IMG/VR virus record: IMGVR_UViG_3300037524_000424
Coordinates: 1 to 64,000 of that record
DNA: 64,000 nucleotides
DNA from: a virus
Lineage: Duplodnaviria; Caudoviricetes
Direction: 5' to 3' (one strand)
Shown in pieces: positions 52 to 55,941 of the stretch. The position numbers and the translations under genes were made by a program. How positions within the stretch are numbered: position 1 is the stretch's first letter; the number at the start of each line of letters is the position of its first letter. The notes under the pieces are model-generated. The model saw only the letters and a list, made by a program, of their open reading frames with translations, had not been told where the DNA came from and did not search any database.

Positions 52-324
52 TCATAACTCCTTCAACAATCTCTCAACTTCTTCAAAACTAGTCAACTCA
101 ACATCCAGCCCCTCTATAGCGTCTAAATAGTGGCGATGCTTGGCGGGATTAATAGCCGAAAAATAGTCCCAACCTCGATCCTCAGAGTCAAGCATCCATA
201 GTGCCACTTTTCCGTTTCTCATGCATACCGAAGTGCCATCAAAGCCGCGATCTTTGAGAATCTGATAAAGATCTTCTAGCTTGGCTCGAGTTCCCCTGAT
301 TATATAGCGTTCTACTGGTTTCAA
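52..324 (-). CDS. hypothetical phage protein
   Basis: 90 aa ORF, 4-nt overlap with the upstream gene; no recognisable motif. Confidence 0.6.
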   Translation of the reverse strand: MKPVERYIIRGTRAKLEDLYQILKDRGFDGTSVCMRNGKVALWMLDSEDRGWDYFSAINPAKHRHYLDAIEGLDVELTSFEEVERLLKEL

Positions 325-887
325 GTCCTCTCCCTCTTCATAGCCCGCATAATCCGTCCATAAACCTTAGCCGTAGCCGCAGCGTCCCATACCGCATCAT
401 GCGCTCTACCCTCAAACGGCAGCCCAAGTCGTTTACAACAAGTCTTAAGTCCGCCACTGATGTTAAGTCCATTGGCTTCGGCGTAAGCCCGGTATAAATG
501 CTTTACATTAAATCCTGAGCGTCCAAACATCCAACTCGTGTCCTTTCCTAGCTCCTTCTTTAGTGCCTCGTCATCCCCTCCACCCCATTGTAGCAGTGCC
601 CTAGAGGTCTTATAGTGGGCTTGAAGACGTACCATCTCTTCATAGGCAAAGTCCAGAGAAACTCCAAGTTCCAAGTCCTCGTTAGTGATGCCCGTCAGTT
701 TTTGGATATAGCCGCTGATTGGGACTCCAATATTGATGTGATAGCCGCGAGTTTCGATGATACCAACTTCTGGGTCATAGACCGCCAGTCCGACTTGGAT
801 TATAGCCGCCTCGTCAAGCTGAGAGTCTGGAGTTTGGGGGTTAGTCTTGTTCTGTTCAAGCTCTAAATCAAGAGATAGATGTATCAT
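321..887 (-). CDS. DEDDh 3'-5' exonuclease (DnaQ/RNase T-like)
   Basis: ExoI SLDLELE, ExoII-like WGGGDD, ExoIII HDAVWDA. Confidence 0.8.
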   Translation of the reverse strand: MIHLSLDLELEQNKTNPQTPDSQLDEAAIIQVGLAVYDPEVGIIETRGYHINIGVPISGYIQKLTGITNEDLELGVSLDFAYEEMVRLQAHYKTSRALLQWGGGDDEALKKELGKDTSWMFGRSGFNVKHLYRAYAEANGLNISGGLKTCCKRLGLPFEGRAHDAVWDAAATAKVYGRIMRAMKRERT

Positions 888-897
888 AGTCGCAACT

Positions 898-1197
898 TTA
901 AATTCGGTGTTCTATTAGGTTTATTTGCCTAGTAGAACAAAATGATTTAACTTTATTTATATGTGGGTTAAAAAAAGAATCCCCTTCTTTAAAAAAAATA
1001 CCTACTTCATCTACATCTAGAAGGCTAACAATACCATAAATTCTTTCCATGTTGTGAGGTTTAACTGTAATTATCTGTATCCTCAACTGTTTATCTTCAG
1101 TAATATAGCTGTCTAAATATTTAGTGAAATATCTTCCTAGTTTATTTTCCAGTTCTTGAGTCCTTTCGTCGTTAGCCGTCAAAAATAATTTTCTCAT
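898..1197 (-). CDS. hypothetical protein
   Basis: 99 aa ORF coupled to dUTPase. Confidence 0.6.
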   Translation of the reverse strand: MRKLFLTANDERTQELENKLGRYFTKYLDSYITEDKQLRIQIITVKPHNMERIYGIVSLLDVDEVGIFFKEGDSFFNPHINKVKSFCSTRQINLIEHRI

Positions 1198-1643
1198 AGT
1201 CCGCTCCCTCCGAAACCTGAAGTCCCTCGTTCATTTTCTTCTAGCTCGTCAGTCATCTCAAACTCAACTCCGAGTACAGGCACTATTTTTAGCTGCGCTA
1301 TCCTATCTCCTACTTCATAGATTTTAGGATTATATAGCCCGATCATTCCCTGCGGATACATAGTTTGCTTAAATCGAAGCATGACCTCACCGGAAAATCC
1401 GCTGTCTATTACAGCAACGTGATTACAAAGACTTAGATCATACTTGGATATAGAACTTCTAGGATATATTAAAGCTGCGAACCCACGAGGCACCTCAAAT
1501 GCTAAAGAAGTCCCAAATTCCCAGAACTTATGATCCCAGTCAAACCGTCGGCTAGTCGCAGTTAAATCAAAGCAAGCATCCCAAGTGTGTGCCTTAGTCG
1601 GGACTTTAGCGTCAGGTCTAAGGGGTCGTATTTTAATAATCAT
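1194..1643 (-). CDS. dut: trimeric dUTPase
   Basis: Motifs ACFDL, PRSS, VIDSGFSGE, GDRIAQL, RGTSGFGGSG. Confidence 0.95.
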   Translation of the reverse strand: MIIKIRPLRPDAKVPTKAHTWDACFDLTATSRRFDWDHKFWEFGTSLAFEVPRGFAALIYPRSSISKYDLSLCNHVAVIDSGFSGEVMLRFKQTMYPQGMIGLYNPKIYEVGDRIAQLKIVPVLGVEFEMTDELEENERGTSGFGGSGL

Positions 1644-1652
1644 AATAAAATC

Positions 1653-1943
1653 CTAATGCATTTCCAGTTTCTTAATCCTATTCTCCAGTTTCCGCAGTCT
1701 TAGCTCCTTGACGTACTCTATAGCCGAGCCTAGTTCCAGCATAGCGTCATGCTCTCGGTCAGTAGTGATATAGACTACATCATTATCCTCGTCAAGCATA
1801 ATGTCTTCTACGAAAATATCAATAAACTCGTCCATTTCCTCTACGAAAACTTTAATGGTCTGTCCCACTAGCTCGTCCAAGTCATGCTGGGGAAAGATGG
1901 CAGGTGGTTGAAACTTGATTACCTTACTCACGGGGCACCTCAT
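1653..1943 (-). CDS. hypothetical protein (true start may be GTG at 1931)
   Basis: ORF in operon; GAGG precedes GTG at 1931. Confidence 0.55.
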   Translation of the reverse strand: MRCPVSKVIKFQPPAIFPQHDLDELVGQTIKVFVEEMDEFIDIFVEDIMLDEDNDVVYITTDREHDAMLELGSAIEYVKELRLRKLENRIKKLEMH

Positions 1944-2184
1944 GGTCTATCAGGATTTCCCGGTACAACTCTTCTAAGAAGTCCATAAGCTCGTTTACGG
2001 CTGGATTTTCGGCTATAATTTCATTTACCCTATCATTATGGTAGCCGTGCTTATGTCGTGGTCTAAAAAGCACATCCCAGACCTCGTGGATGGCACGTTT
2101 ATAGGAGTATGCCTTCACTACATCTACGACTTCTGAATCGTCCTGACATTTTACTGTAATTTGGTAACGGGGTGCATCAAACAT
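1924..2184 (-). CDS. hypothetical protein
   Basis: ATG at 2184 preceded by GGAGG; start shortened relative to the ORF track. Confidence 0.6.
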   Translation of the reverse strand: MFDAPRYQITVKCQDDSEVVDVVKAYSYKRAIHEVWDVLFRPRHKHGYHNDRVNEIIAENPAVNELMDFLEELYREILIDHEVPRE

Positions 2185-2192
2185 ATTGCCTC

Positions 2193-2678
2193 CTAGGTCC
2201 ACCAGTATGGACTGTATTGCTTTAAAAGATCCCAAAGTAGGTTATAGTCGCGGCTGTAAATACGGTTCCCAAAATCCATGACTGCCCGAAAGTCAGCAGT
2301 TTCTTCAGCATCGCGGTCCGGGGAAGAGTTAGCGCGTTTGAAGTTAAGAATCCCCGTCCCGCTAGGGACTAGGTCGCCCCACTTTTTTTCAAAGTCAGCG
2401 TAGGCTCTAGTAGCATAACATATACTATCTCTAGTTGTCAACCGTTTTAATAACATAATACAAATCCTGAGAGCTACCATAGGACGATACTCGTCTTTGT
2501 CGCTTGGATCTTGAGTCCAAACAAAATTAGTATTGGATATTGATTCTGTATACATACGCTCTAGTTTATATAACATAACCTCTAGGAGATATTGACTATC
2601 CCAATCGTAGTTATGGCGCATCTTCCAGCCCCAGCTAGTGGCACGACTGATAGTTCTAAATCCGCTATATAAGTTCAT
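2193..2678 (-). CDS. hypothetical phage protein
   Basis: 161 aa ORF overlapping the upstream stop by 4 nt. Confidence 0.65.
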   Translation of the reverse strand: MNLYSGFRTISRATSWGWKMRHNYDWDSQYLLEVMLYKLERMYTESISNTNFVWTQDPSDKDEYRPMVALRICIMLLKRLTTRDSICYATRAYADFEKKWGDLVPSGTGILNFKRANSSPDRDAEETADFRAVMDFGNRIYSRDYNLLWDLLKQYSPYWWT

Positions 2679-3271
2679 TCAAGACTCCCTTCTGGTCGCA
2701 GTGCCCGGTTGTAGAAGTAGGCATTTCTAACTCTATGACCCTCAGCAAAATATATCCTAATAGCCCGATCTAACCCACCAATGCTACAATTTACTAAATA
2801 AGCGAACAGTTTGCCAAAAGTAGCAGCACCAAGCACCTTACGTCGGTAGAAAGTCCTAAGAGTAAAGTATGCTTGTAACTTACCAGAAGTAGGTATTTCT
2901 CTAATTCCGTGCCTATTCAGCTTAGTCGCCTGCATAGCCTCTATTATAAACGCAATATAAACGAAAGGCAAGAAAATAGTGCCGACTTTAGGATTTCTCA
3001 TAATGAAAAACATCATAAAGCGAATTGGGTGTAAAGAGTGGTGTCCAAATAGCGGCAACTCTTCCATAGTTTTAGGAGAAAATTGGGCTATCCATCCGTA
3101 TATTAAGTTCCAGTTATCGTGACTGAAGTTCTGTTCAGCTAGTGCCTCATTACCATTAGTTCGGTAGTAGGACTGGATAAAGTCAAATACATTACCATAA
3201 TGAGAGTCTGTCTTATATAACAAGTCCTCTTGGCAGCTAAACATAATTTCGTTGGTGCTGTAATTACTCAT
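2675..3271 (-). CDS. hypothetical protein
   Basis: Start placed at ATG 3271 (ATGA overlap with the small ORF 3268-3378). Confidence 0.6.
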   Translation of the reverse strand: MSNYSTNEIMFSCQEDLLYKTDSHYGNVFDFIQSYYRTNGNEALAEQNFSHDNWNLIYGWIAQFSPKTMEELPLFGHHSLHPIRFMMFFIMRNPKVGTIFLPFVYIAFIIEAMQATKLNRHGIREIPTSGKLQAYFTLRTFYRRKVLGAATFGKLFAYLVNCSIGGLDRAIRIYFAEGHRVRNAYFYNRALRPEGSLE

Positions 3272-3378
3272 ATTGTATATCCTGTTAAAACGCTGAACAT
3301 ATTTACTATAATCCAAAAATAGACGGTAAGTCCCAAAAATGCCAATATTATCAGTGTTAAGGGGTTAGCCGGTCTCAT
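3268..3378 (-). CDS. 36 aa single-pass membrane peptide (not in ORF track)
   Basis: GGAG RBS; MRPANPLTLIILAFLGLTVYFWIIVNMFSVLTGYTI; ATGA coupling to the next gene. Confidence 0.6.
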   Translation of the reverse strand: MRPANPLTLIILAFLGLTVYFWIIVNMFSVLTGYTI

Positions 3379-3387
3379 ATAATCTCC

Positions 3388-3436
3388 AAAAAGAAAGCCC
3401 CGGTAAAGGTTAAGGGGGATTAAGCCTCTACCGGGG
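3388..3436 (-). terminator. intrinsic terminator
   Basis: Minus strand CCCCGGTAGAGG...CCTTTACCGGGG followed by CTTTCTTTTT. Confidence 0.75.
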
Positions 3437-3468
3437 ATTTAGTCAGTAGTCGAAAGGGGGATTTCTGA

Positions 3469-3864
3469 CTACCAATCAGTATTAACAATCGGTTTATTTG
3501 CAATCTTCTTCTTACTGAAAGTCGGCACTTCTACCTTAGCTGGCGCAGAAGGTGTTCTAGTCTGCTGCACTTCCACTTTTTCCGCTACAACAGGAGGTTG
3601 AACTTCCTTATTCAACTCCTTGATTGTACGGGCATCATCCTGATACACATCTACTTTCGGGGGTAGGTAGACTTCATCAAATTCCTTTTCGCCTTTTAAT
3701 ACTAAATGTAAATCCTTTAGACCCAAGTCAACTCGAACAGGGAAATCCAACTGAGTACGGAGGTAAATCCTACTTGACTTATCTCCTTGAGATTCAACAA
3801 AAGATACGTCATCTGTGTTAATTAGTCTATGTAGTCCAACATCAGTTCTTAAATATACTAACAT
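3469..3864 (-). CDS. hypothetical protein, N-terminus resembles FlbD/SwrD-like domain; paralog of 3858-4043
   Basis: LxTDxG-RLINTDDVSFVE pattern shared with the neighbour; low-complexity tail. Confidence 0.45.
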   Translation of the reverse strand: MLVYLRTDVGLHRLINTDDVSFVESQGDKSSRIYLRTQLDFPVRVDLGLKDLHLVLKGEKEFDEVYLPPKVDVYQDDARTIKELNKEVQPPVVAEKVEVQQTRTPSAPAKVEVPTFSKKKIANKPIVNTDW

Positions 3865-4043
3865 ACTTCCTCTCCTTTTATCAATCGAAAAAATGATTCT
3901 ATATCAGACTCAACTATAATATGTACTCCACTTGTAAGTAGTTGAACTACCAACATACCCTCACCATCTTCAAATACAGTAGTAATATGTTCCGTATTAA
4001 TAATAAATTTTCTTCCCTGGTAGTCATCAAGCTTAATTAACAT
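3858..4043 (-). CDS. small FlbD/SwrD-like protein
   Basis: MLIKLDDYQGRKFIINTEHITTVFE...IVESDIE resembles FlbD-family MIxLT..NG..F.LN...I..I; GGAGG RBS. Confidence 0.45.
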   Translation of the reverse strand: MLIKLDDYQGRKFIINTEHITTVFEDGEGMLVVQLLTSGVHIIVESDIESFFRLIKGEEVC

Positions 4044-4070
4044 AACTCTTTTACCTCCTGATATAATAAA

Positions 4071-4190
4071 ATATCACCTATAATCCTAACTTGATACTCC
4101 TCCTACCTTTAGGTAGAGGATTCCGGTTTAAATCTCTATTTGACATCTCTGTCTCCTTTTGATACGAGGTTGTATCCCAACCCAACATTA
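4071..4190 (-). ncRNA. predicted TnpB omega-RNA (scaffold ~4190-4091, guide 4090-4071 GUUAGGAUUAUAGGUGAUAU)
   Basis: IS200/IS605 right-end signature GAAT-CCTCTACCTAAAGGTAGGAGG-AGTA-TCAA ending at 4091; upstream hairpin GGTTG-GGATA-CAACC (4182-4168). Confidence 0.7.
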
Positions 4191-5197
4191 AGAATTACAC
4201 GAGCAGAATTTACATCTCTATCGTGCTGTGCCCCACAAGCACATTCCCAATGCCTTACCGAAAGCTCACTCAATCCTTTGGGACCAGTTAAGTCCCCGCA
4301 AACCGAGCAAGTCATTGTGGTATATTGACTATCTACTAATTTCACTGCCCTACCGTGATTGTTACCCTTGTAGGAGATGAAAGTTCGTAATTGTGAAATT
4401 CCTGCGTCACCAACCGATTTCCCAAAGATTTTAGCTTGTCCTTTTAAATTATCGTTGGTGATATAGATTTCTTTATAATTTTGAACTATTTCCTTAGAAA
4501 CTTTATGGTTATAGTCCTTACGTCTATTTTTGTTTCTTTCATGAAGTCTTGCAACTAGTTTTCTATTCTTACCTCTTTGTGCTTGAGCTAATCTTTTTTG
4601 CCCTTTAACATAATATCTATTATTCTCAAAAATCTTCCCGTCAGACAGTGTAGCTAGAGACTTGAATCCTGTATCAATACCAACTTTTAAATCGGTTTCT
4701 TTTACTTGAAAAATACGATTAACATCAATCGTCAGTATAAGATACCAACCAGAAGCTCTCTTAATTATCCTACCATTCTTAATTTTACCCATAGGCAATT
4801 CTTGTTTATGAAAACGTAACTCTCCGATAGTAGGTAATTTTATCCTATTTCCTTTAATTTTACTTTGTGGTATAGCATCTGGAAAGGGAATAGAATTAAA
4901 TTTATTTCTTATTCCCTTAAGTTTTGGTTCTTTTGCTAGTTTTTTAAAACATCTATCCCAAGAATTATACGCTTGATTTAAGGTTCCTTGAATTGTATGC
5001 GAAGGAATCCCTATTTGTTTACTATGATTCGATAATAAGTTACAAAACTCAAACTTAGAATAATAAATTTTATCACTAGCATCTTGCTTAATTTTTCTGA
5101 TTCCCCAGTTATAAACACCAGTTAAAATCCACAACCATTCGGTCAAAGAGTCTTCTTGTTTTCTGGTTAGTCTTAATTTTAATTCTCTAGTTCTCAT
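4136..5197 (-). CDS. tnpB: TnpB (IS200/IS605 OrfB family), RuvC-II glutamate absent, predicted nuclease-dead
   Basis: N-terminal HTH KLRLTRKQE; RuvC-I GIDTG; zinc finger CSVC/CAC; RuvC-III HDRDVNSA; IYITNDNL where IxIEDL is expected. Confidence 0.9.
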   Translation of the reverse strand: MRTRELKLRLTRKQEDSLTEWLWILTGVYNWGIRKIKQDASDKIYYSKFEFCNLLSNHSKQIGIPSHTIQGTLNQAYNSWDRCFKKLAKEPKLKGIRNKFNSIPFPDAIPQSKIKGNRIKLPTIGELRFHKQELPMGKIKNGRIIKRASGWYLILTIDVNRIFQVKETDLKVGIDTGFKSLATLSDGKIFENNRYYVKGQKRLAQAQRGKNRKLVARLHERNKNRRKDYNHKVSKEIVQNYKEIYITNDNLKGQAKIFGKSVGDAGISQLRTFISYKGNNHGRAVKLVDSQYTTMTCSVCGDLTGPKGLSELSVRHWECACGAQHDRDVNSARVILNVGLGYNLVSKGDRDVK

Positions 5198-5206
5198 AAA
5201 CCTATT

Positions 5207-5368
5207 TTACTCCAAAACTTTAACCCTGTCAAGAAAAAAGTCCTCATACACATTTATTACAGTCCAAGCTATATGATCGTAAGTATCCTGGTCGCAATCT
5301 ATCTTGCATATAACAGCAATATCAATATCCACAACTCCAACTAACTTAGTCACGAGGTGCCTGCGCAT
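5207..5368 (-). CDS. small hypothetical protein
   Basis: Start taken at ATG 5368 (GAGG upstream, overlaps the previous gene end). Confidence 0.45.
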   Translation of the reverse strand: MRRHLVTKLVGVVDIDIAVICKIDCDQDTYDHIAWTVINVYEDFFLDRVKVLE

Positions 5369-5681
5369 AGTCGAGGAGTTTGGCGTACAACCCATCCATA
5401 ATTCTAAGATTCTCATCAGCCAACACCAAAGCATCTCCTTCGGGTTTCTGCTTCTCATAAGTATCCTTGGCATAATCAATTACTCCAGATACCGCCATGG
5501 TGATGCTTCGCAACTCAAAAGGATTAACATTACATACCGCAGTGTTCAATGTAAATTTGTCTGACATCCTCTCGAAATAACGACGCTCACTACGATCCTT
5601 GCGCTTTCTAGCAGCCTCAGCAAAATCTTCCATAAGAATCATTAAAAACAGCTTCTCTTCTCGGTCTAATTGTAGTTGCAT
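5346..5681 (-). CDS. hypothetical protein
   Basis: GGAGG RBS before ATG 5681, just downstream of a sigma70 promoter. Confidence 0.65.
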   Translation of the reverse strand: MQLQLDREEKLFLMILMEDFAEAARKRKDRSERRYFERMSDKFTLNTAVCNVNPFELRSITMAVSGVIDYAKDTYEKQKPEGDALVLADENLRIMDGLYAKLLDYAQAPRD

Positions 5682-5698
5682 AAGTCCTCCATGAAGAA

Positions 5699-5728
5699 AT
5701 TGTAACACAACAGAGGTCAGCAAGTCAA
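5699..5728 (-). promoter_or_regulatory. sigma70-type promoter for the tnpB-containing operon
   Basis: TTGACT-18 bp-TACAAT. Confidence 0.65.
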
Positions 5729-5756
5729 CAAAAATCTTTTGTAGGACAAAAAAGGC

Positions 5757-6150
5757 GTACTGGTGACAGGTCTTTCCGGGTTAATACTACAGCATTATTC
5801 CCGGAAATAGCGGTTGGTTAGAACGAGGAGTTTATGTCAGATTCCAGTTCCTACTGTTTAAGACGTTTAAGTCTCATTAACCCGGTAGGCGCAAAGTAAC
5901 AACCAAAGAAGCGTCTGTTACCTGACTTTTTCTCATCTATATTAGAATAACCGTTGTTCTGCTGCCTGTCCTTGCTCGTGTTGTTCAGCCGAACTCGAGT
6001 CTCATACCCTGGTCATGAACTTAGCCGATATACAGGTTTGTCGTTCAGAGGACTTCGAGTAGCATCATAGGGAAGTGCTTTAAGTTTAGTGTCCGAAAAC
6101 AGTTAAAAGGACTGCTTGTTGCTACGATGCTTAGATAGCAAAAAAGCATA
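5757..6150 (-). ncRNA. candidate large structured ncRNA (~390 nt)
   Basis: No long ORF; at least 8 nested helices; own TTGACA/TACTAT promoter; T-tract after the 3' end. Confidence 0.5.
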
Positions 6151-6159
6151 ATGCCTATC

Positions 6160-6188
6160 ATAGTATCACTTGTAATTTTGGATGTCAA
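6160..6188 (-). promoter_or_regulatory. sigma70-type promoter
   Basis: TTGACA-17 bp-TACTAT pointing into the non-coding region. Confidence 0.7.
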
Positions 6189-6223
6189 GAAAAAAGTGAT
6201 GTATAATATAAATTATTTATGGT

Positions 6224-6232
6224 CATCAAGTA
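6224..6232 (+). promoter_or_regulatory. CATCAAGTA late-gene motif copy 1
   Basis: Exact 9-mer followed by TATTATAA, upstream of the packaging operon. Confidence 0.65.
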
Positions 6233-6328
6233 TATTATAAGCGGCTGATAATTTGGAAAGTCCTAGTGGACAATAAAAAATTAAGCCATTAACATTAACC
6301 GCTTTCATTACGCCGTCACGGAGGAATT

Positions 6329-6592
6329 ATGCGCTTTCTAAAGGAATTGAACCATCCCTTATTTTTAATCGTCATTTACGTCATTAAAGTTGGGGTTGTT
6401 GGAGCAACTATCCCGGATGCACTCATAGTGGCAATCCTGGCGGCACTTATTTTTGGACTTAAGCACCTGAATATCAAACAACAGAATACATCCGAGAATG
6501 AGTTTAGGAATCAGGTATCCAGGGATTTAGCCGAGGTTAAGGCTAAGTTGTCGTCTATTAACCTACAGCAAGGAATGAATATCAGGAGATAG
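6329..6592 (+). CDS. membrane protein (2 TM plus coiled coil)
   Basis: GGAGG RBS; two hydrophobic segments. Confidence 0.65.
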   Translation: MRFLKELNHPLFLIVIYVIKVGVVGATIPDALIVAILAALIFGLKHLNIKQQNTSENEFRNQVSRDLAEVKAKLSSINLQQGMNIRR

Positions 6593-6597
6593 TCGAC

Positions 6598-6975
6598 ATG
6601 ACTAAGAAGATAAAAGATACTCCTATTAAGTCCTCAGAAGAAGTCCTTGATGCTATTAAAGCCGAAACTGACAGTGTTGAGGAGTTGAAGCAACAAATAG
6701 CCCGACTTGAGGAATTGTTGTCTAATGCCCGCAAAAAGAACGCTAAGTCGCACGAAGAAGAAATCATTATGGCAGAACTAAAGCGTATGTGGACTGTCCA
6801 TGTAGTCAAAGATGTCCCAATGTTTAAGACTAACGATGTGAAAAAGCTGAAAACTCTAGTCGAAGCATTGAATATTATTCGTAATGGTTTCAAAGAAGTT
6901 AAGCCCAAGGAAAAGGAAATGAGCGAGCAGGAGGCATTAAGAGTTATCAGTATGTTTAAGGAAGAAGCTGAGTAG
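6598..6975 (+). CDS. hypothetical protein, possible small terminase by position
   Basis: Coiled-coil protein directly before TerL; no diagnostic motif. Confidence 0.4.
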   Translation: MTKKIKDTPIKSSEEVLDAIKAETDSVEELKQQIARLEELLSNARKKNAKSHEEEIIMAELKRMWTVHVVKDVPMFKTNDVKKLKTLVEALNIIRNGFKEVKPKEKEMSEQEALRVISMFKEEAE

Positions 6976-6977
6976 TT

Positions 6978-9023
6978 ATGCATCCTAGAAAAGAGTTGGA
7001 GAAGTTTAGAGAACTAGTCGAAAAGAGTAAAGACGTTAAGTATCAAGAAGCTAGTGTTGCACCAGAAGATTTACCAGCATTTCAACCACTAGAAGACAAA
7101 AATCCAATAGAAATATTAGAAAAGAATACAGTGGTTCGCCCGAAGGGACGACCAAAGGGGTCTATTAGCAAGAATGTAGGATTTAAAAAGAAAGATTCGG
7201 AAGAAGTCCTCAAAGCTCGAAGAACTTTATGGAGGAAGGGTATCTTGGCTGAAATGAAGCTAGATAAAATGCAGCTTGAGTTGTATAAGAAATTTAAGAA
7301 TAGAACAGATTCGTTAGTAGTTTGGGTATCAGGAAGGCAAACGGGTAAATGTCTAACTGGCGACACTAAAGTAATGACTCCAGTAGGACCCAAGACTATA
7401 AATGAAATCCAAGTAGGCGATTATGTCATAGGTTATGATGGAGAAGGAAAAACTAGTCCAACCAAAGTGTTAGGTAAGCAGTACCAGGGTGAGCAGGAAG
7501 TAGTTGATTTGGTATATAATCGAGATATTTTAGCTACTTGCACACTGAATCATCGGTGGGTGAAATTAAACGAACTGACTGGAAACGAAGAGATTATAGA
7601 GACATCTGACATAACAGATTATACTACGTTAATATCTAACTTAGAATTAGATTATGTTGGAGTAAGAAAAGAGAATCTAAGAATTGAAGAAACTTGGGAT
7701 ATACTAATAGATAATGAAACACATCTATATCTAACTGCCGATGGGTTAGTTACACATAACTCCTTTACGGCACTAACTACTGTTATGGAAGCCTGTTTAC
7801 AGACCGCAGGACTAAGAGTTGCCTATGTTAGTCCGCAGAAAGCCCAAACGCGAGATGTGGTAGAAAAAAACATCCACATAATACTAGCCGACTGCCCAGA
7901 TCAACTTCGTCCTAAGTATGACCAACAACGAGGTATGTGGAAGTTTAATAACGGCTCTATCATGAAAGTAGCCGGTATTGATGGAGGTCACGTTGAATCT
8001 CTTAGAGGACAAACTTTTGACATAGTAGTAGTAGATGAAGCAGGATTTCCTTCAGCTCAGGAATTTGAGTATGCCATGGAGTCTGTTATTTTCCCTACAA
8101 TGACAAGAGCAACCAATCCTGTATTACTATTATTTAGTACTCCACCAGTTAACTATGACCACCCGTTCAACGATTATTGGGAAAAAGCAGAAGTCACAGG
8201 GAACTTTATCCTCAAGACAATATACGATAGTACGCTACCTAAGTCTCAAATAGCCGACATCGAAGCTCGCTATGGTATAGACTCTATTGCCTTTAGAAGA
8301 GAATTTAAGTGCGAACGTATAGCCGACACTAACGCCTTAGTAATCCCGGAAGCAACTCGTTCCGTTATGGAAGACATTGTAGTCGAACACAAACGACCTC
8401 CCTTTTACCAGACGTATGTGGTAGCCGACTATGGAGTCATGGACTTAAATGCAATAATATTCGCATATTACGACTTCAGAGAGGATGTTATAGTCATTGA
8501 AGACGAACTAAAATTAGCCGGAGCAGAGTACGACACACGAAAAATGGCAGAATGTATTAAAGCGAAAGAGTTGGAGTTATGGGGAGAAGGTGCAAACCCT
8601 ATGCGATATTGTGATAATAACCTCCAAATTATTATGGACTTTGCTAGTATATACAACCTCAATTTCATGGCTACAGACAAGAAGAACAAACACTCCCATG
8701 TGAACATAGTCCGAGAAAAGGTCAGCAGTCAAAAAATACATATAGATCCCAAGTGTGAGAATACCATAAACCATATCCAAAATGCTGTATGGGATAAAGA
8801 CCGTAAGAAGTTCCGAAAGGCGATAGGACACCACTACGACTTTTTGGATTGTGTTATTTATCTAGTCCGAAATATCGACTATAGAAGTAATCCATATCCT
8901 GCCCACTATGACGAACAAGGAATGTATCTTTCTCCAAAATACCTAAAAATGAGAGAGGGAGAAGGTTTCGTTAATCAACTCAAACAGATGTTTACCCCCA
9001 GAAAGACTCGAAATAACCGTTAG
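6978..9023 (+). CDS. terL: terminase large subunit (intein-containing)
   Basis: Walker A GRQTGK|S, Walker B VVVDEAG, coupling FSTPP, nuclease VADYG and HHYDFLD. Confidence 0.92.
   Translation: MHPRKELEKFRELVEKSKDVKYQEASVAPEDLPAFQPLEDKNPIEILEKNTVVRPKGRPKGSISKNVGFKKKDSEEVLKARRTLWRKGILAEMKLDKMQLELYKKFKNRTDSLVVWVSGRQTGKCLTGDTKVMTPVGPKTINEIQVGDYVIGYDGEGKTSPTKVLGKQYQGEQEVVDLVYNRDILATCTLNHRWVKLNELTGNEEIIETSDITDYTTLISNLELDYVGVRKENLRIEETWDILIDNETHLYLTADGLVTHNSFTALTTVMEACLQTAGLRVAYVSPQKAQTRDVVEKNIHIILADCPDQLRPKYDQQRGMWKFNNGSIMKVAGIDGGHVESLRGQTFDIVVVDEAGFPSAQEFEYAMESVIFPTMTRATNPVLLLFSTPPVNYDHPFNDYWEKAEVTGNFILKTIYDSTLPKSQIADIEARYGIDSIAFRREFKCERIADTNALVIPEATRSVMEDIVVEHKRPPFYQTYVVADYGVMDLNAIIFAYYDFREDVIVIEDELKLAGAEYDTRKMAECIKAKELELWGEGANPMRYCDNNLQIIMDFASIYNLNFMATDKKNKHSHVNIVREKVSSQKIHIDPKCENTINHIQNAVWDKDRKKFRKAIGHHYDFLDCVIYLVRNIDYRSNPYPAHYDEQGMYLSPKYLKMREGEGFVNQLKQMFTPRKTRNNR
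7350..7760 (+). mobile_element. mini-intein (137 aa, no endonuclease) in the TerL P-loop
   Basis: Starts CLTGDTKV after GK, block B TxNHRW, ends LVTHN followed by Ser. Confidence 0.92.
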
Positions 9024-43534: not shown

Positions 43535-44335
43535 TTACTTCCTTACGTTACGAGTATCGTTTAAGGTTTTAACGTATTCGGTAATGAAGTGGTCAACTCT
43601 AGGGTCTACATTGGCATTATAAGCAACACCATCAACTTTAGAGTTTACTATCTTATAGCCCTCGATTACAGGACAATTGCTTCTGGATACACTCAAGTCA
43701 ATATTTTTTCCTAAAAAGTTGATGCTAACATCTTTTACGGTAGTTCCCAATAATGACTTACCGCATTTTACTAGCACTACCTCGTCGGCAAATCCCAAAT
43801 CAACGCAATTCTGACCTTCACACCACATTTCGTTGGAGTACATATCAGAATACTGTTTGAATGTTAGTTTGCCTTCGGTGCGGGCTACTGTTAGATTATC
43901 CAAACTATTGATGCGTTTAAGCCAGAAGTTAAGGCGACTTTCTAGTTCGCCGTTAGGAAATTGACCTCTAATACCTCCGTTGGCACGATGTGACATTAAA
44001 ACGCCGTGGGGAGTGATATAGCGTTTTTTCATACCTTGGACAGTTACAAATCCCATAGAGGCAGAGAAGATGGTGATAGTATTGATTTTGTCAGAGATTC
44101 CGTTTAAGCTGTCGATCATAGAAAGTCCGGCACTAATTTCTCCACCCGGACTGATTAGGACTAGGTACTTATCCCCTAAAGCGGTAAGTTTCTGGAACTT
44201 TTCCACTACTTCGCTGGTGGTTTCAGAACTAAACTCGGCATCTAACAGCACGGTATTTCTGTCGGTCAGAAGGATAGTCCGTTGCGCTAAGGCAAGCGAC
44301 GGCACTAATAGTAGAAAAAGAATAAGATTTCGCAT
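43535..44335 (-). CDS. clpP: ClpP-like serine protease with predicted Sec signal peptide
   Basis: LISPGGEISAG, SASMG, LMSH; N-terminus MRNLILFLLLVPSLALA|Q. Confidence 0.8.
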   Translation of the reverse strand: MRNLILFLLLVPSLALAQRTILLTDRNTVLLDAEFSSETTSEVVEKFQKLTALGDKYLVLISPGGEISAGLSMIDSLNGISDKINTITIFSASMGFVTVQGMKKRYITPHGVLMSHRANGGIRGQFPNGELESRLNFWLKRINSLDNLTVARTEGKLTFKQYSDMYSNEMWCEGQNCVDLGFADEVVLVKCGKSLLGTTVKDVSINFLGKNIDLSVSRSNCPVIEGYKIVNSKVDGVAYNANVDPRVDHFITEYVKTLNDTRNVRK

Positions 44336-45571: not shown

Positions 45572-45818
45572 TACTCCTTGGATATAATTTATAGTAGCCG
45601 ATTATAGTTAGTATTATGAAGTTAAACCCGTAGTTCATTATTAGGGGTAAATTGAGCAGCCAGGAAACGTATATTAGTCCTAAAACATCGCCTGCGTACC
45701 AAATGGTGAACAATCCGACATCTATGTGATGAGAGTTACCATTTTTAATGGATAAATATGCAGTTGGTGCCCCGCAGACTGCTAGAAAGAATGAGGAGAG
45801 ATAGCCGACTATTTCCAC
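45561..45818 (-). CDS. PQ-loop / SemiSWEET-like 3-TM membrane protein
   Basis: IVGY....LAVCGAP.AY.S.K...SH.ID......W..G...L.Y....PLI.NY..N. Confidence 0.7.
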   Translation of the reverse strand: MEIVGYLSSFFLAVCGAPTAYLSIKNGNSHHIDVGLFTIWYAGDVLGLIYVSWLLNLPLIMNYGFNFIILTIIGYYKLYPRSNDV

Positions 45819-46429
45819 ATATCCTCCTTGGACGTTATGATCTTGTCCACTAATCCTAACTCTAGTGCTGCCTTAGCCGTCAGAAAGCGGTCAAAGGTTA
45901 TGAGCTTCTGGAGTTTCTTGCGGGTAAACGACGGATGCTTTTGTTTAATTCGTTCTAAGTAGATGCTTTCCATATCGACGTTGATGCGACTATTTTCATT
46001 AGCCCAGGATTCAAAGTCTTTAGAGTGCCCACCAAAGCCGTTAGTGCCATAGTGAAGCATCATACAAGCATTTTCCGAGATAGCACGATTGTCAGCCGCT
46101 TGCATAATGACTGACCCCATGGACATAACATATCCATAGCCGACGATGTTGACTTCGTTCTTGCATTGACGTATAGCGTCGTAAATGCCTATTCCATGAT
46201 AAAAATCTCCTCCAGGAGTATTTAATATAATGTTTATAGGCTGGTCTGCTTCTTTTGTGTTGTCTAGGATATATAAGTTTTTAATGACTTGGGCGGCAGT
46301 AAAGTTATCAATGCCCGCTTCTCCGTTTTCATCAGCTTGGATGCTGCCAATATAGAGAGTCCTGGTAGCAAAATGAATGTTATAGATGTGGAAGTTGTCA
46401 ATGTCATCCTTGCCGCTTTTCTTTGCCAT
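45809..46429 (-). CDS. clpP: ClpP-like protease
   Basis: INIILNTPGG...GIGIYD, VMSMGSVI, MMLH, FLTAKAALELGLVDKI. Confidence 0.9.
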   Translation of the reverse strand: MAKKSGKDDIDNFHIYNIHFATRTLYIGSIQADENGEAGIDNFTAAQVIKNLYILDNTKEADQPINIILNTPGGDFYHGIGIYDAIRQCKNEVNIVGYGYVMSMGSVIMQAADNRAISENACMMLHYGTNGFGGHSKDFESWANENSRINVDMESIYLERIKQKHPSFTRKKLQKLITFDRFLTAKAALELGLVDKIITSKEDMWK

Positions 46430-54789: not shown

Positions 54790-54855
54790 AAGGAAGTCGA
54801 ATAGAATTTAAGAATTTGATTGACTATGATAATAAAGATATGGTATATTAATAGT

Positions 54856-55941
54856 ATGGAAAAGAAAGATAAATCAAAAATTACAGTAACCCGTAGCTAT
54901 AAATTACAAATTATAGCAAATAAAGCTAAAACAGATACAGCTAAGTATTTGATAAATCGTTATAACTTATATGTTGTTCAGTTTTTAGGGAATATGTATT
55001 ATTATAATAAATCAGAGTCAACTTCCGGATTAGGAGAATTAGCCAATCAAGCGCAGCATTGTGCTAAAGGTAAATCTAAGGCAATTAGAGAATCAGCAAA
55101 AGCTACAGGAAATAAAGTTAATTTACCGTTAAAAACGAACGAAGGGGTTCCTGTTAAAGTAGAAGAAAATAAAGAAACAACATTTGACTATGTGGTAAAA
55201 GTCCCTAACCATTGGGTAAAAAATAACAAGTTAAACTTAATGGTAAAATCTACTAAAGTTTTAAATAAAGCATTGAAAAATGGATGGACTCGAACTACCT
55301 TTGGGGAGTTAAAACTAGATAAATCTGGTAATCTTTACATCATAATAACCGTTCAAAAAGAAGTTAAACGAGCAGAAAAGAATAAAAACTGTATCGGGGT
55401 TGACGTAGGAATTAGAAATGGAATAGCTAGAAGCGATGGTTACTTAGGAGAAGAACTATCACAAGTAATTAAGTCACAAAAATTAAAGCAATCAGCACGT
55501 CAAAAACAAGGGCATAAAAGTAAAATAAATAAAACTACCGTTAAACAAATATTAGATAAAGAAGCCAAGAAAACTGTTGCACGTTGCTCAGAATCGAAGT
55601 TGTCTTTAGCGGTTGAATCGAGAAAAGTATTGAATAACCTAAGAAGCGGGAAGTTACAGGGTTGGGCAAGAAACTATTTTGCCAATCGTTGTGAAATCTT
55701 ATGTAAGGAAAATTCAGTATTCTTCGTAGAAGTAAATCCATACCAAACATCGCAGTTGTGTGGTCATTGCGGTTCCGAAGGAATTCGTGATGGAAAACAG
55801 TTTAACTGCCTTTCTTGCCAGAAAACCTTTGATGCTGACTTAAATGCCAGCATCAATATAGCAAAGAAAGGACGGCAAGTGATTGAACAAATCGCGATCA
55901 GGTTGTCGGAAAAAGCGAGGCGTGATGCGAGCGTTTCGTAA
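54856..55941 (+). CDS. tnpB: TnpB-family RuvC nuclease, catalytic triad intact; probably leaderless start at 54856
   Basis: GVDVG (D), LAVES (E), CGHC..CLSC, DADLNAS (D); TTGACT-18-TATATT places +1 at about the ATG. Confidence 0.88.
   Translation: MEKKDKSKITVTRSYKLQIIANKAKTDTAKYLINRYNLYVVQFLGNMYYYNKSESTSGLGELANQAQHCAKGKSKAIRESAKATGNKVNLPLKTNEGVPVKVEENKETTFDYVVKVPNHWVKNNKLNLMVKSTKVLNKALKNGWTRTTFGELKLDKSGNLYIIITVQKEVKRAEKNKNCIGVDVGIRNGIARSDGYLGEELSQVIKSQKLKQSARQKQGHKSKINKTTVKQILDKEAKKTVARCSESKLSLAVESRKVLNNLRSGKLQGWARNYFANRCEILCKENSVFFVEVNPYQTSQLCGHCGSEGIRDGKQFNCLSCQKTFDADLNASINIAKKGRQVIEQIAIRLSEKARRDASVS

Follow-up and report, generated by a model that had tools for sequence, protein, structure and literature searches.

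A probable structured non-coding RNA gene between the divergent operons of an uncultured phage

The gap between the divergent early and packaging operons of an uncultured phage very probably contains a real, structured and hitherto undescribed non-coding RNA gene, as judged by comparison with related phage sequences. We analysed the first 64 kb of a 77.6-kb virus record of IMG/VR, here called the window, in which the RNA would be encoded on the minus strand as a separate gene of about 420 nt. The generic mark of a structured non-coding RNA was found: helices are kept by compensatory changes above controls, in three or four distinct sequences, too few for formal significance. The RNA matches no described family, and our claim of novelty concerns the family of the RNA. 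An initial annotation of this DNA had proposed a large phage RNA of several domains, as yet undescribed and encoded on the minus strand. The kept promoter, the covariation, a local peak of conservation and the absence of a matching Rfam family all bear this proposal out.

The case rests on the relatives, thermodynamics aside, because the single-sequence folding energy of the 411-nt stretch is no better than that of shuffled sequences (z = -0.3 for the minus strand, -0.7 for the plus strand). Clearly diverged homologs number just two, namely contig L008 and, in part, contig L006, so that statistical covariation tests such as R-scape are without power here.

The locus and its relatives

The early genes occupy positions 52-5681 on the minus strand and include, by their relatives, a dUTPase and an RNase T-like exonuclease. 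The packaging operon begins on the plus strand at position 6329 with the gene for an 87-aa protein, followed by the genes for a 125-aa protein and the large terminase. Between the two operons lies a non-coding gap of 605 bp (5724-6328), and a gap of 340-830 bp is kept between the divergent operons in all relatives compared. The first early gene (Table 1) belongs to a family of about 100-113 aa which is present in every relative with 18-42% identity. AlphaFold models its 111-aa product as a confident helical bundle (pLDDT 92); the predicted fold has no match in the PDB, and the protein falls into no Pfam or PHROG family.

Table 1. Features of the RNA locus and its neighbourhood in window coordinates, with the sequence identity to the close variant L027
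Feature	Position	Strand	Description	Identity to L027
Terminase N-terminus				93.7%
125-aa gene				83.1%
87-aa gene				91.7%
Late promoter and leader of plus-strand operon				86.8%
RNA promoter	6188..6160	minus	-35 6188..6183, 17-nt spacer, -10 6165..6160; TTGACA / TACTAT	91%
ncRNA	5731..6155	minus	about 420 nt; both ends inferred	
RNA 5′ domain				95.7%
P1 5′ hairpin	6114..6147	minus	4 + 7 bp	
Small hairpin	6091..6112	minus	3-4 bp, pyrimidine-rich loop (alignments A3, A5)	
Earlier-noted 5′ helix	6131..6122 / 6070..6061	minus	P1 loop and part of P1 3′ strand with downstream strand	
Central region	5971..6060	minus	about 90 nt; about 150-190 extra nt here in L008	
3′ domain	5765..5970	minus	206 nt; tight three-way junction with 0-1 nt linkers, and long arm	97.1%
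Closing helix	5970..5964 / 5772..5765	minus	RNAalifold; two double changes in L008 (A-U to G-C, G-C to A-U)	
P2	5963..5959 / 5813..5809	minus	G-C to C-G, C-G to U-G	
P7	5937..5932 / 5830..5825	minus	added helix of long arm	
P5	5926..5922 / 5840..5836	minus	added helix of long arm	
P4	5904..5901 / 5849..5846	minus	added helix of long arm	
P6	5889..5885 / 5854..5850	minus	added helix of long arm	
P3 hairpin	5807..5800 / 5780..5773	minus	C-G to U-A in L008, U-G in L002 and L027	
PK2 long-range pairing	5885..5876 / 5785..5776	minus	P6 loop with 3′ half of P3 hairpin; inverted repeat I4, 10/10 complementary	
Tail	5730..5759	minus	block conserved in L008 5759..5748, AU-rich 8-bp hairpin 5753..5735, U-run 5734..5730 (five U)	
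Second promoter	5728..5699	minus	TTGACT-18-TACAAT; serves 111-aa gene; downstream limit of RNA module	76.6%
First early gene	5681..5346	minus	111 aa, served by second promoter	77.2%

The label "early accessory operon", which the minus-strand genes had been given in the initial annotation, needs correcting. The TnpB gene in this operon (4136-5197, minus strand) is missing from close relatives with the same RNA and is, by this comparison, a recent insertion into the early operon. It lies in a 1.1-kb segment (4093-5190) with almost no flank beyond the ORF; in L002, L003 and L027 about 93 bp replace this segment, yet the same RNA is carried.

We considered an omega RNA of TnpB and rejected it. The guide RNAs of TnpB, IscB and IsrB (omega RNA, HEARO) recall the present case, in which a TnpB gene has a structured RNA of a few hundred nt in its vicinity. 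These guides are located, however, at the 3′ end of the gene, whereas here the RNA lies on the upstream side of TnpB, separated from it by 530 bp and two genes, and the RNA is present in the three variants without TnpB. Furthermore, the Rfam model of HEARO gives no match to the RNA. A second TnpB-like ORF is present at 54820-55941 on the plus strand of the window.

Relatives were found by looking up the flanking proteins in a large protein collection. Two contigs, L004 and L005, are near-identical to the window. Close variants were retrieved through the 111-aa protein (L002 and L003, 82% identical) and through the 87-aa protein (L027, L028 and L029), and more distant phages through the terminase with 52-71% identity (L006, L007, L008-10 and L018-L026). 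The homologs of the RNA come from a few of these metagenomic phage contigs, namely L002/L003/L027-29 (95-97% identical), L006 (partial) and L008 (about 65%). The L008 copy is detected by nhmmer with an E value of 1e-13 next to a protein that is only 31% identical. In L006 the RNA is cut at the contig end, and the match covers the 5′ third (E 1e-26).

Beyond these contigs we searched widely. GenBank phages gave no DNA match and contain no close cultured phage, the best terminase relative being just 25% identical. The search of IMG/VR with proteins, a terminase profile and four DNA patterns retrieved no real relatives; the seven pattern matches (L011-L017) are chance matches inside unrelated genes. 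Patterns common to the window and L008 are absent from IMG/VR and from 185,579 GTDB genomes (two scans). A covariance model which includes L008 (R2) was run with filters off on L007 and L018-L026, and it gave noise-level matches outside the expected place. The RNA thus appears so far to be restricted to a narrow clade.

In the comparison of the window with L027 the RNA is the local conservation peak of its neighbourhood (Table 1). The block of high identity extends in L002 and L003 as far as the -35 element of the second promoter. Beside selection, a recent recombination patch could partly share in the very high identity of the RNA with L002 and L027.

The stretch 6200-6328, located 5′ of the 87-aa gene, is conserved in many relatives, including those without the RNA. 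It carries a conserved putative late-promoter motif at about 6226-6234 (alignment A10) and more conserved blocks up to the ribosome-binding site. This conservation probably belongs to the late promoter and 5′ leader of the packaging operon and lies outside the RNA.

Coding potential, family and fold

About 400 bp without a long ORF had been noted initially, and this holds: no ORF of more than 47 aa is present in 5724-6328, the longest stop-free stretch has 53 codons and no frame is common with L008. A protein-coding gene or its decayed remnant was rejected. The blocks conserved between the window and L008 lie in different frames, and the best cross-frame match spans 26 aa with an E value of 0.003; the match to a decayed gene, which the initial annotation had named as an outcome that would refute the RNA, is thus lacking. 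A small protein inside the RNA was rejected as well, as its frames are not kept with L008.

We then turned to known RNA families. With the 4227 models of Rfam 15 at the gathering threshold no match is found in the 64-kb window, and a search at E values up to 10 over 3500-6700 gave four chance-level matches only, all far under threshold. The RNA regions of L008, L027 and L002 gave no match with Rfam either. The models included tmRNA, RNase P, group I/II introns, HEARO, GOLLD, ROOL, Phage_pRNA and riboswitches, and the result agrees with the earlier statement that signatures of group I/II introns, RNase P, tmRNA and HEARO are lacking. Two further candidates were dropped. A CsrA-type sponge is not indicated, as GGA motifs occur by eye at about chance frequency, and a likeness to a B12 box near the closing helix concerns positions that covary as a helix, with no match to the Cobalamin model.

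The 3′ domain was folded with RNAalifold on a plain, structure-blind MAFFT alignment of the window, L002 and L008 (in the numbering of the RNA, W is 6157 minus the window coordinate). In this alignment the three junction helices are 95% paired, and five of their 20 pairs are double-changed as opposed to 0-2 with slid partners. The A.C mismatch that P2 shows in the window is G-C in L002 and A-U in L008. A covariance model built from the window and L002 (R1), which includes the added helices of the long arm, recovers L008 with 48 bits (E 6e-11). On the alignment fitted to the covariance model 95.5% of the cells of the 3′ domain pair and 8 of 39 pairs are double-changed, compared with 0-2 in slid controls, and none of 500 shuffles reaches this value; the fitted alignment leans towards the model and comprises only four distinct sequences, so that these numbers indicate structure and are no proof. 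P4 is misaligned by the covariance model; read directly, L008 has seven perfect pairs at this helix with two further double changes. Among the close variants 10 of the 12 variable sites of the 3′ domain are located outside the modelled helices, and the remaining two keep or restore pairing (C-G to U-G, A.C to G-C).

The long-range pairing PK2 is also found in L008, where a script check gives eight contiguous pairs with two double changes. Five of its pairs can coexist with the P3 stem, whereas the others compete with it; in the window PK2 has 10 bp, of which the outer 5 bp compete.

The RNA could be read differently, as a tRNA-like or tmRNA-like RNA which is processed and aminoacylated, or as a packaging RNA of the phi29 type. 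In the window and in L002 the 7-bp closing helix is followed by ACCA, a hairpin stacks straight onto this helix in the fashion of a T arm, and the three-way junction with its loop-loop complementarity recalls the phi29 pRNA. The ACCA is, however, replaced by ACCC in L027 and by ACAG in L008. ARAGORN finds neither tRNA nor tmRNA, and the Rfam models for tmRNA, tRNA and Phage_pRNA do not match even at E values up to 10. A T-loop, a G-U as third pair of the helix and a conserved tag frame were not seen, and the hairpin beside the closing helix, with 8 bp and a large loop, is no T arm. Because the ACCA end is not conserved and tRNA and tmRNA features are absent, aminoacylation, as suggested in the initial annotation, is unlikely. 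Nothing indicates the packaging role that had been suggested along with it: the large terminase is of the ordinary type, and the RNA stands under an early, host-type promoter which is directed away from the packaging operon. In our view these readings are barely credible.

In the 5′ part the window, L006 and L008 differ in the sequence of the P1 hairpin but share its shape. On the MAFFT alignment A5 eight of the 11 pairs of P1 are double-changed, 90.9% of the cells pair and none of 500 shuffles is as good. The small hairpin that follows has a loop of 14 nt in all three sequences; its stem is invariant and hence gives no covariation signal. The helix 6131..6122 / 6070..6061, already listed in the initial annotation, acquires three double changes in L006, and its G-U pair becomes G-C in L027; it is not found in L008. 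As this helix reuses the P1 loop and part of the P1 3′ strand, the alignments suggest that it either forms a pseudoknot with P1 or replaces the upper part of P1. Such an overlap concerns two pairs of supported helices, P1 with 6131..6122 / 6070..6061 and P3 with PK2. For the 90 nt of the central region the comparison supports no helix.

Eight helices had been drawn by hand before the relatives were known. Covariation speaks for four to five of the eight, and of the others one is invariant, one wobble-compatible and one disturbed. Besides the 5′ helix just mentioned, double changes occur in 5965-70/5765-70 (two), 5800-07/5773-80 (one, and one wobble) and 5922-26/5836-40 (one). The helix 5885-89/5850-54 is conserved and invariant, while the loop that it encloses varies in length. 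Two wobble-type changes seen in close variants agree with the helix 5917-21/5896-5900. The helix 6051-60/5993-6001 is disturbed by uncompensated changes in L002 and L027. Homologs lacking compensatory changes had been named as an outcome that would speak against the RNA; such changes are present in L008 and L006.

The double changes also bear on the question whether the stretch acts as DNA, that is as a replication origin, a packaging site or an array for a regulatory protein, with complementarities that are incidental or form DNA hairpins. Origins and pac or cos sites are often located between divergent early and late/packaging operons, as this stretch is; the stretch is also strongly conserved, and the GC skew changes its sign here. 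Against a DNA element, helices with strands about 200 nt apart keep their pairing through double changes, and some of the changes yield G-U pairs which work only in an RNA of one strand. Indels are located in loops, a conserved promoter fires into the stretch, and there are no iterons and no direct or tandem repeats. A DNA element is thus very improbable.

Promoters, transcript and mode of action

The promoter that had been recognised as TTGACA-17-TACTAT is confirmed as a motif on the minus strand and is kept in three diverged lineages. It agrees with the sigma-70 consensus at 10 of 12 positions and has an extended -10 TG. The homologous promoter, at the same position as in the window, scores 12/12 in L008 and 10/12 with the TG in L006. 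Among the window, L006 and L008 the hexamers are kept while the spacers have diverged (alignment A10), and the first transcribed bases are kept as well. From the promoter the RNA is expected to start near 6155-6152. Several pairs are G-U on the minus strand only. Because of the conserved promoter and these one-strand G-U pairs we assign the RNA to the minus strand. The L008 homolog is about 560 nt long.

At the downstream end both the T-tract and the separate promoter for the next gene, as first described, are present (Table 1). The consensus scan makes no terminator call at the tail, and a canonical GC-rich terminator is absent. In L027 changes are confined to the loop of the tail hairpin; L008 has a similar hairpin but without a U-run. 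Hairpin and U-run are a candidate weak terminator just before the -35 element of the second promoter. Read-through from the RNA into the early operon would be possible, because there is no canonical GC-rich terminator and no U-run after the L008 hairpin. Of the second promoter L002 and L003 keep the hexamers with a scrambled spacer, and L008 has an equivalent promoter. Judged as an independent unit, the RNA has its own conserved promoter, and at its end just a weak AU-rich hairpin with U-run in the window and no U-run in L008.

We suggest that the RNA works in the following way. On entry of the phage DNA the host RNA polymerase would transcribe the RNA from the near-consensus sigma-70 promoter. 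Its gene, a separate minus-strand unit for a structured non-coding RNA, would be co-oriented with the early operon and located upstream of that operon's own promoter. The transcript would fold into a 5′ hairpin whose loop pairs downstream, a variable centre and a compact 206-nt 3′ domain, in which a tight three-way junction carries a long arm with its tip paired to the junction hairpin. Early in infection the RNA would then act in trans via its fold, by binding or scaffolding a factor of the host or the phage, and neither by coding nor by long antisense pairing nor by aminoacylation. We infer the transcript ends, the independence from the early mRNA and the mode of action. As an explanation of the locus we give such a stand-alone early RNA acting through its fold an even chance. 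It is favoured because it has its own conserved promoter, because a hairpin with U-run and a separate conserved promoter precede the genes, because the conserved block ends at the boundary of the second promoter and because relatives have the same operon without the RNA.

The main rival explanation makes the RNA a cis-acting leader. Transcription from the upstream promoter would continue into the early operon, with the structured 5′ part serving as a switch that senses a ligand or protein or as an element conferring resistance to termination, and the second promoter would be the unregulated one. The RNA lies directly upstream of the early operon in the same orientation and a strong terminator is absent. 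Tandem early promoters of the sigma-70 type are located 150-630 nt apart in all relatives. The two mutually exclusive pairs of covarying helices, P3 versus the extended PK2 and P1 versus 6131..6122/6070..6061, would also suit a switch. However, a conserved second promoter separates the RNA from the first gene and the block of high identity ends before it. L007 and L018-L026 have the same first gene family and no detectable copy of the RNA. Moreover, no terminator-competing expression platform could be drawn, and no known riboswitch or antitermination family in Rfam matches. We hold a cis-acting leader to be possible, if doubtful.

The slot between the tandem early promoters is hypervariable and contains unrelated sequence among L007, L008, L018, L023, L024 and L025. 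In these relatives it may house further small genes or RNAs.

With its first 16 nt (6141-6156) the RNA resembles 6322-6337, the region of ribosome-binding site and start codon of the 87-aa gene, at 13 of 16 positions in the same sense. The 5′ end of the RNA would mimic the 87-aa mRNA rather than pair with it, and the likeness may be due to chance.

Known RNAs and neighbouring genes

Small RNAs are known from comparable places. The CI RNA of P4, the c4 RNA of P1 and put of HK022 are simple RNAs of 65-80 nt, encoded directly after an early promoter and ahead of early genes, which work through short antisense pairing or target the polymerase. The RNA described here shares with them the location between early promoter and early genes. 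It has, however, 5-7 times their length and a pseudoknotted fold, and between it and the genes stands a second promoter.

The pRNA of phi29 is likewise phage-encoded, is made from an early promoter and has a three-way junction and complementary loops. In contrast to it, our RNA has no match in Rfam and more than twice the size, and while the phi29-like phages are protein-primed, the genome studied here has 78 kb and a terminase.

ROOL and GOLLD are large "ornate" RNAs of bacteria and phages with about 580 and 800 nt, respectively, and of unknown function (PMC12286853). Like them the RNA described here has several hundred nt, many helices and long-range loop contacts, and like them it would be a stand-alone gene in phage or prophage DNA. 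The loop-loop contacts could, as in ROOL and GOLLD, be intermolecular. The differences are that neither model matches our RNA, that our RNA is smaller (about 420-560 nt) and not located beside tRNA genes, and that it comes so far from a handful of related phage contigs.

It is conceivable, though we consider it unlikely, that the RNA represents, as its first member, a new class of phage RNAs, large and pseudoknotted, which are made from the very start of infection. Such an RNA could form a multimer via intermolecular PK2, as do the phi29 pRNA and the cages of ROOL and GOLLD, or it could be a ribozyme or a decoy which captures a protein and so disables a function or defence of the host. If this reading were true, the paired alternative helices would make the RNA a conformational switch.

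Large RNAs with intricate conserved folds are rare, and earlier cases have proved to be ribozymes, ribonucleoprotein cores, guide RNAs or self-assembling cages. A new RNA of this kind would lengthen the short list of "ornate" RNAs, and it would be small and tractable for work on structure and function. In this uncultured phage lineage the RNA has the strongest early promoter, and among close variants it is kept better than the terminase N-terminus. Its presence suggests that RNA genes can occupy the variable slot which, in this phage group, separates the tandem early promoters.

Some other genes of the window are of interest in their own right. Two genes for ClpP-like proteases are found close together on the minus strand (43535-44335 and 45809-46429), and a ClpP-like protease gene is also present within the early operon of L024. 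The large terminase (6978-9023) has 681 aa, whereas that of most relatives has 537-545 aa. Its additional stretch of about 137 aa begins with Cys just after the Walker A lysine and ends with His-Asn followed by Ser, thus resembling a small intein or mini-intein. Larger inteins with LAGLIDADG domains are found in the terminases of other relatives (P0004, P0009 and P0018-P0023).
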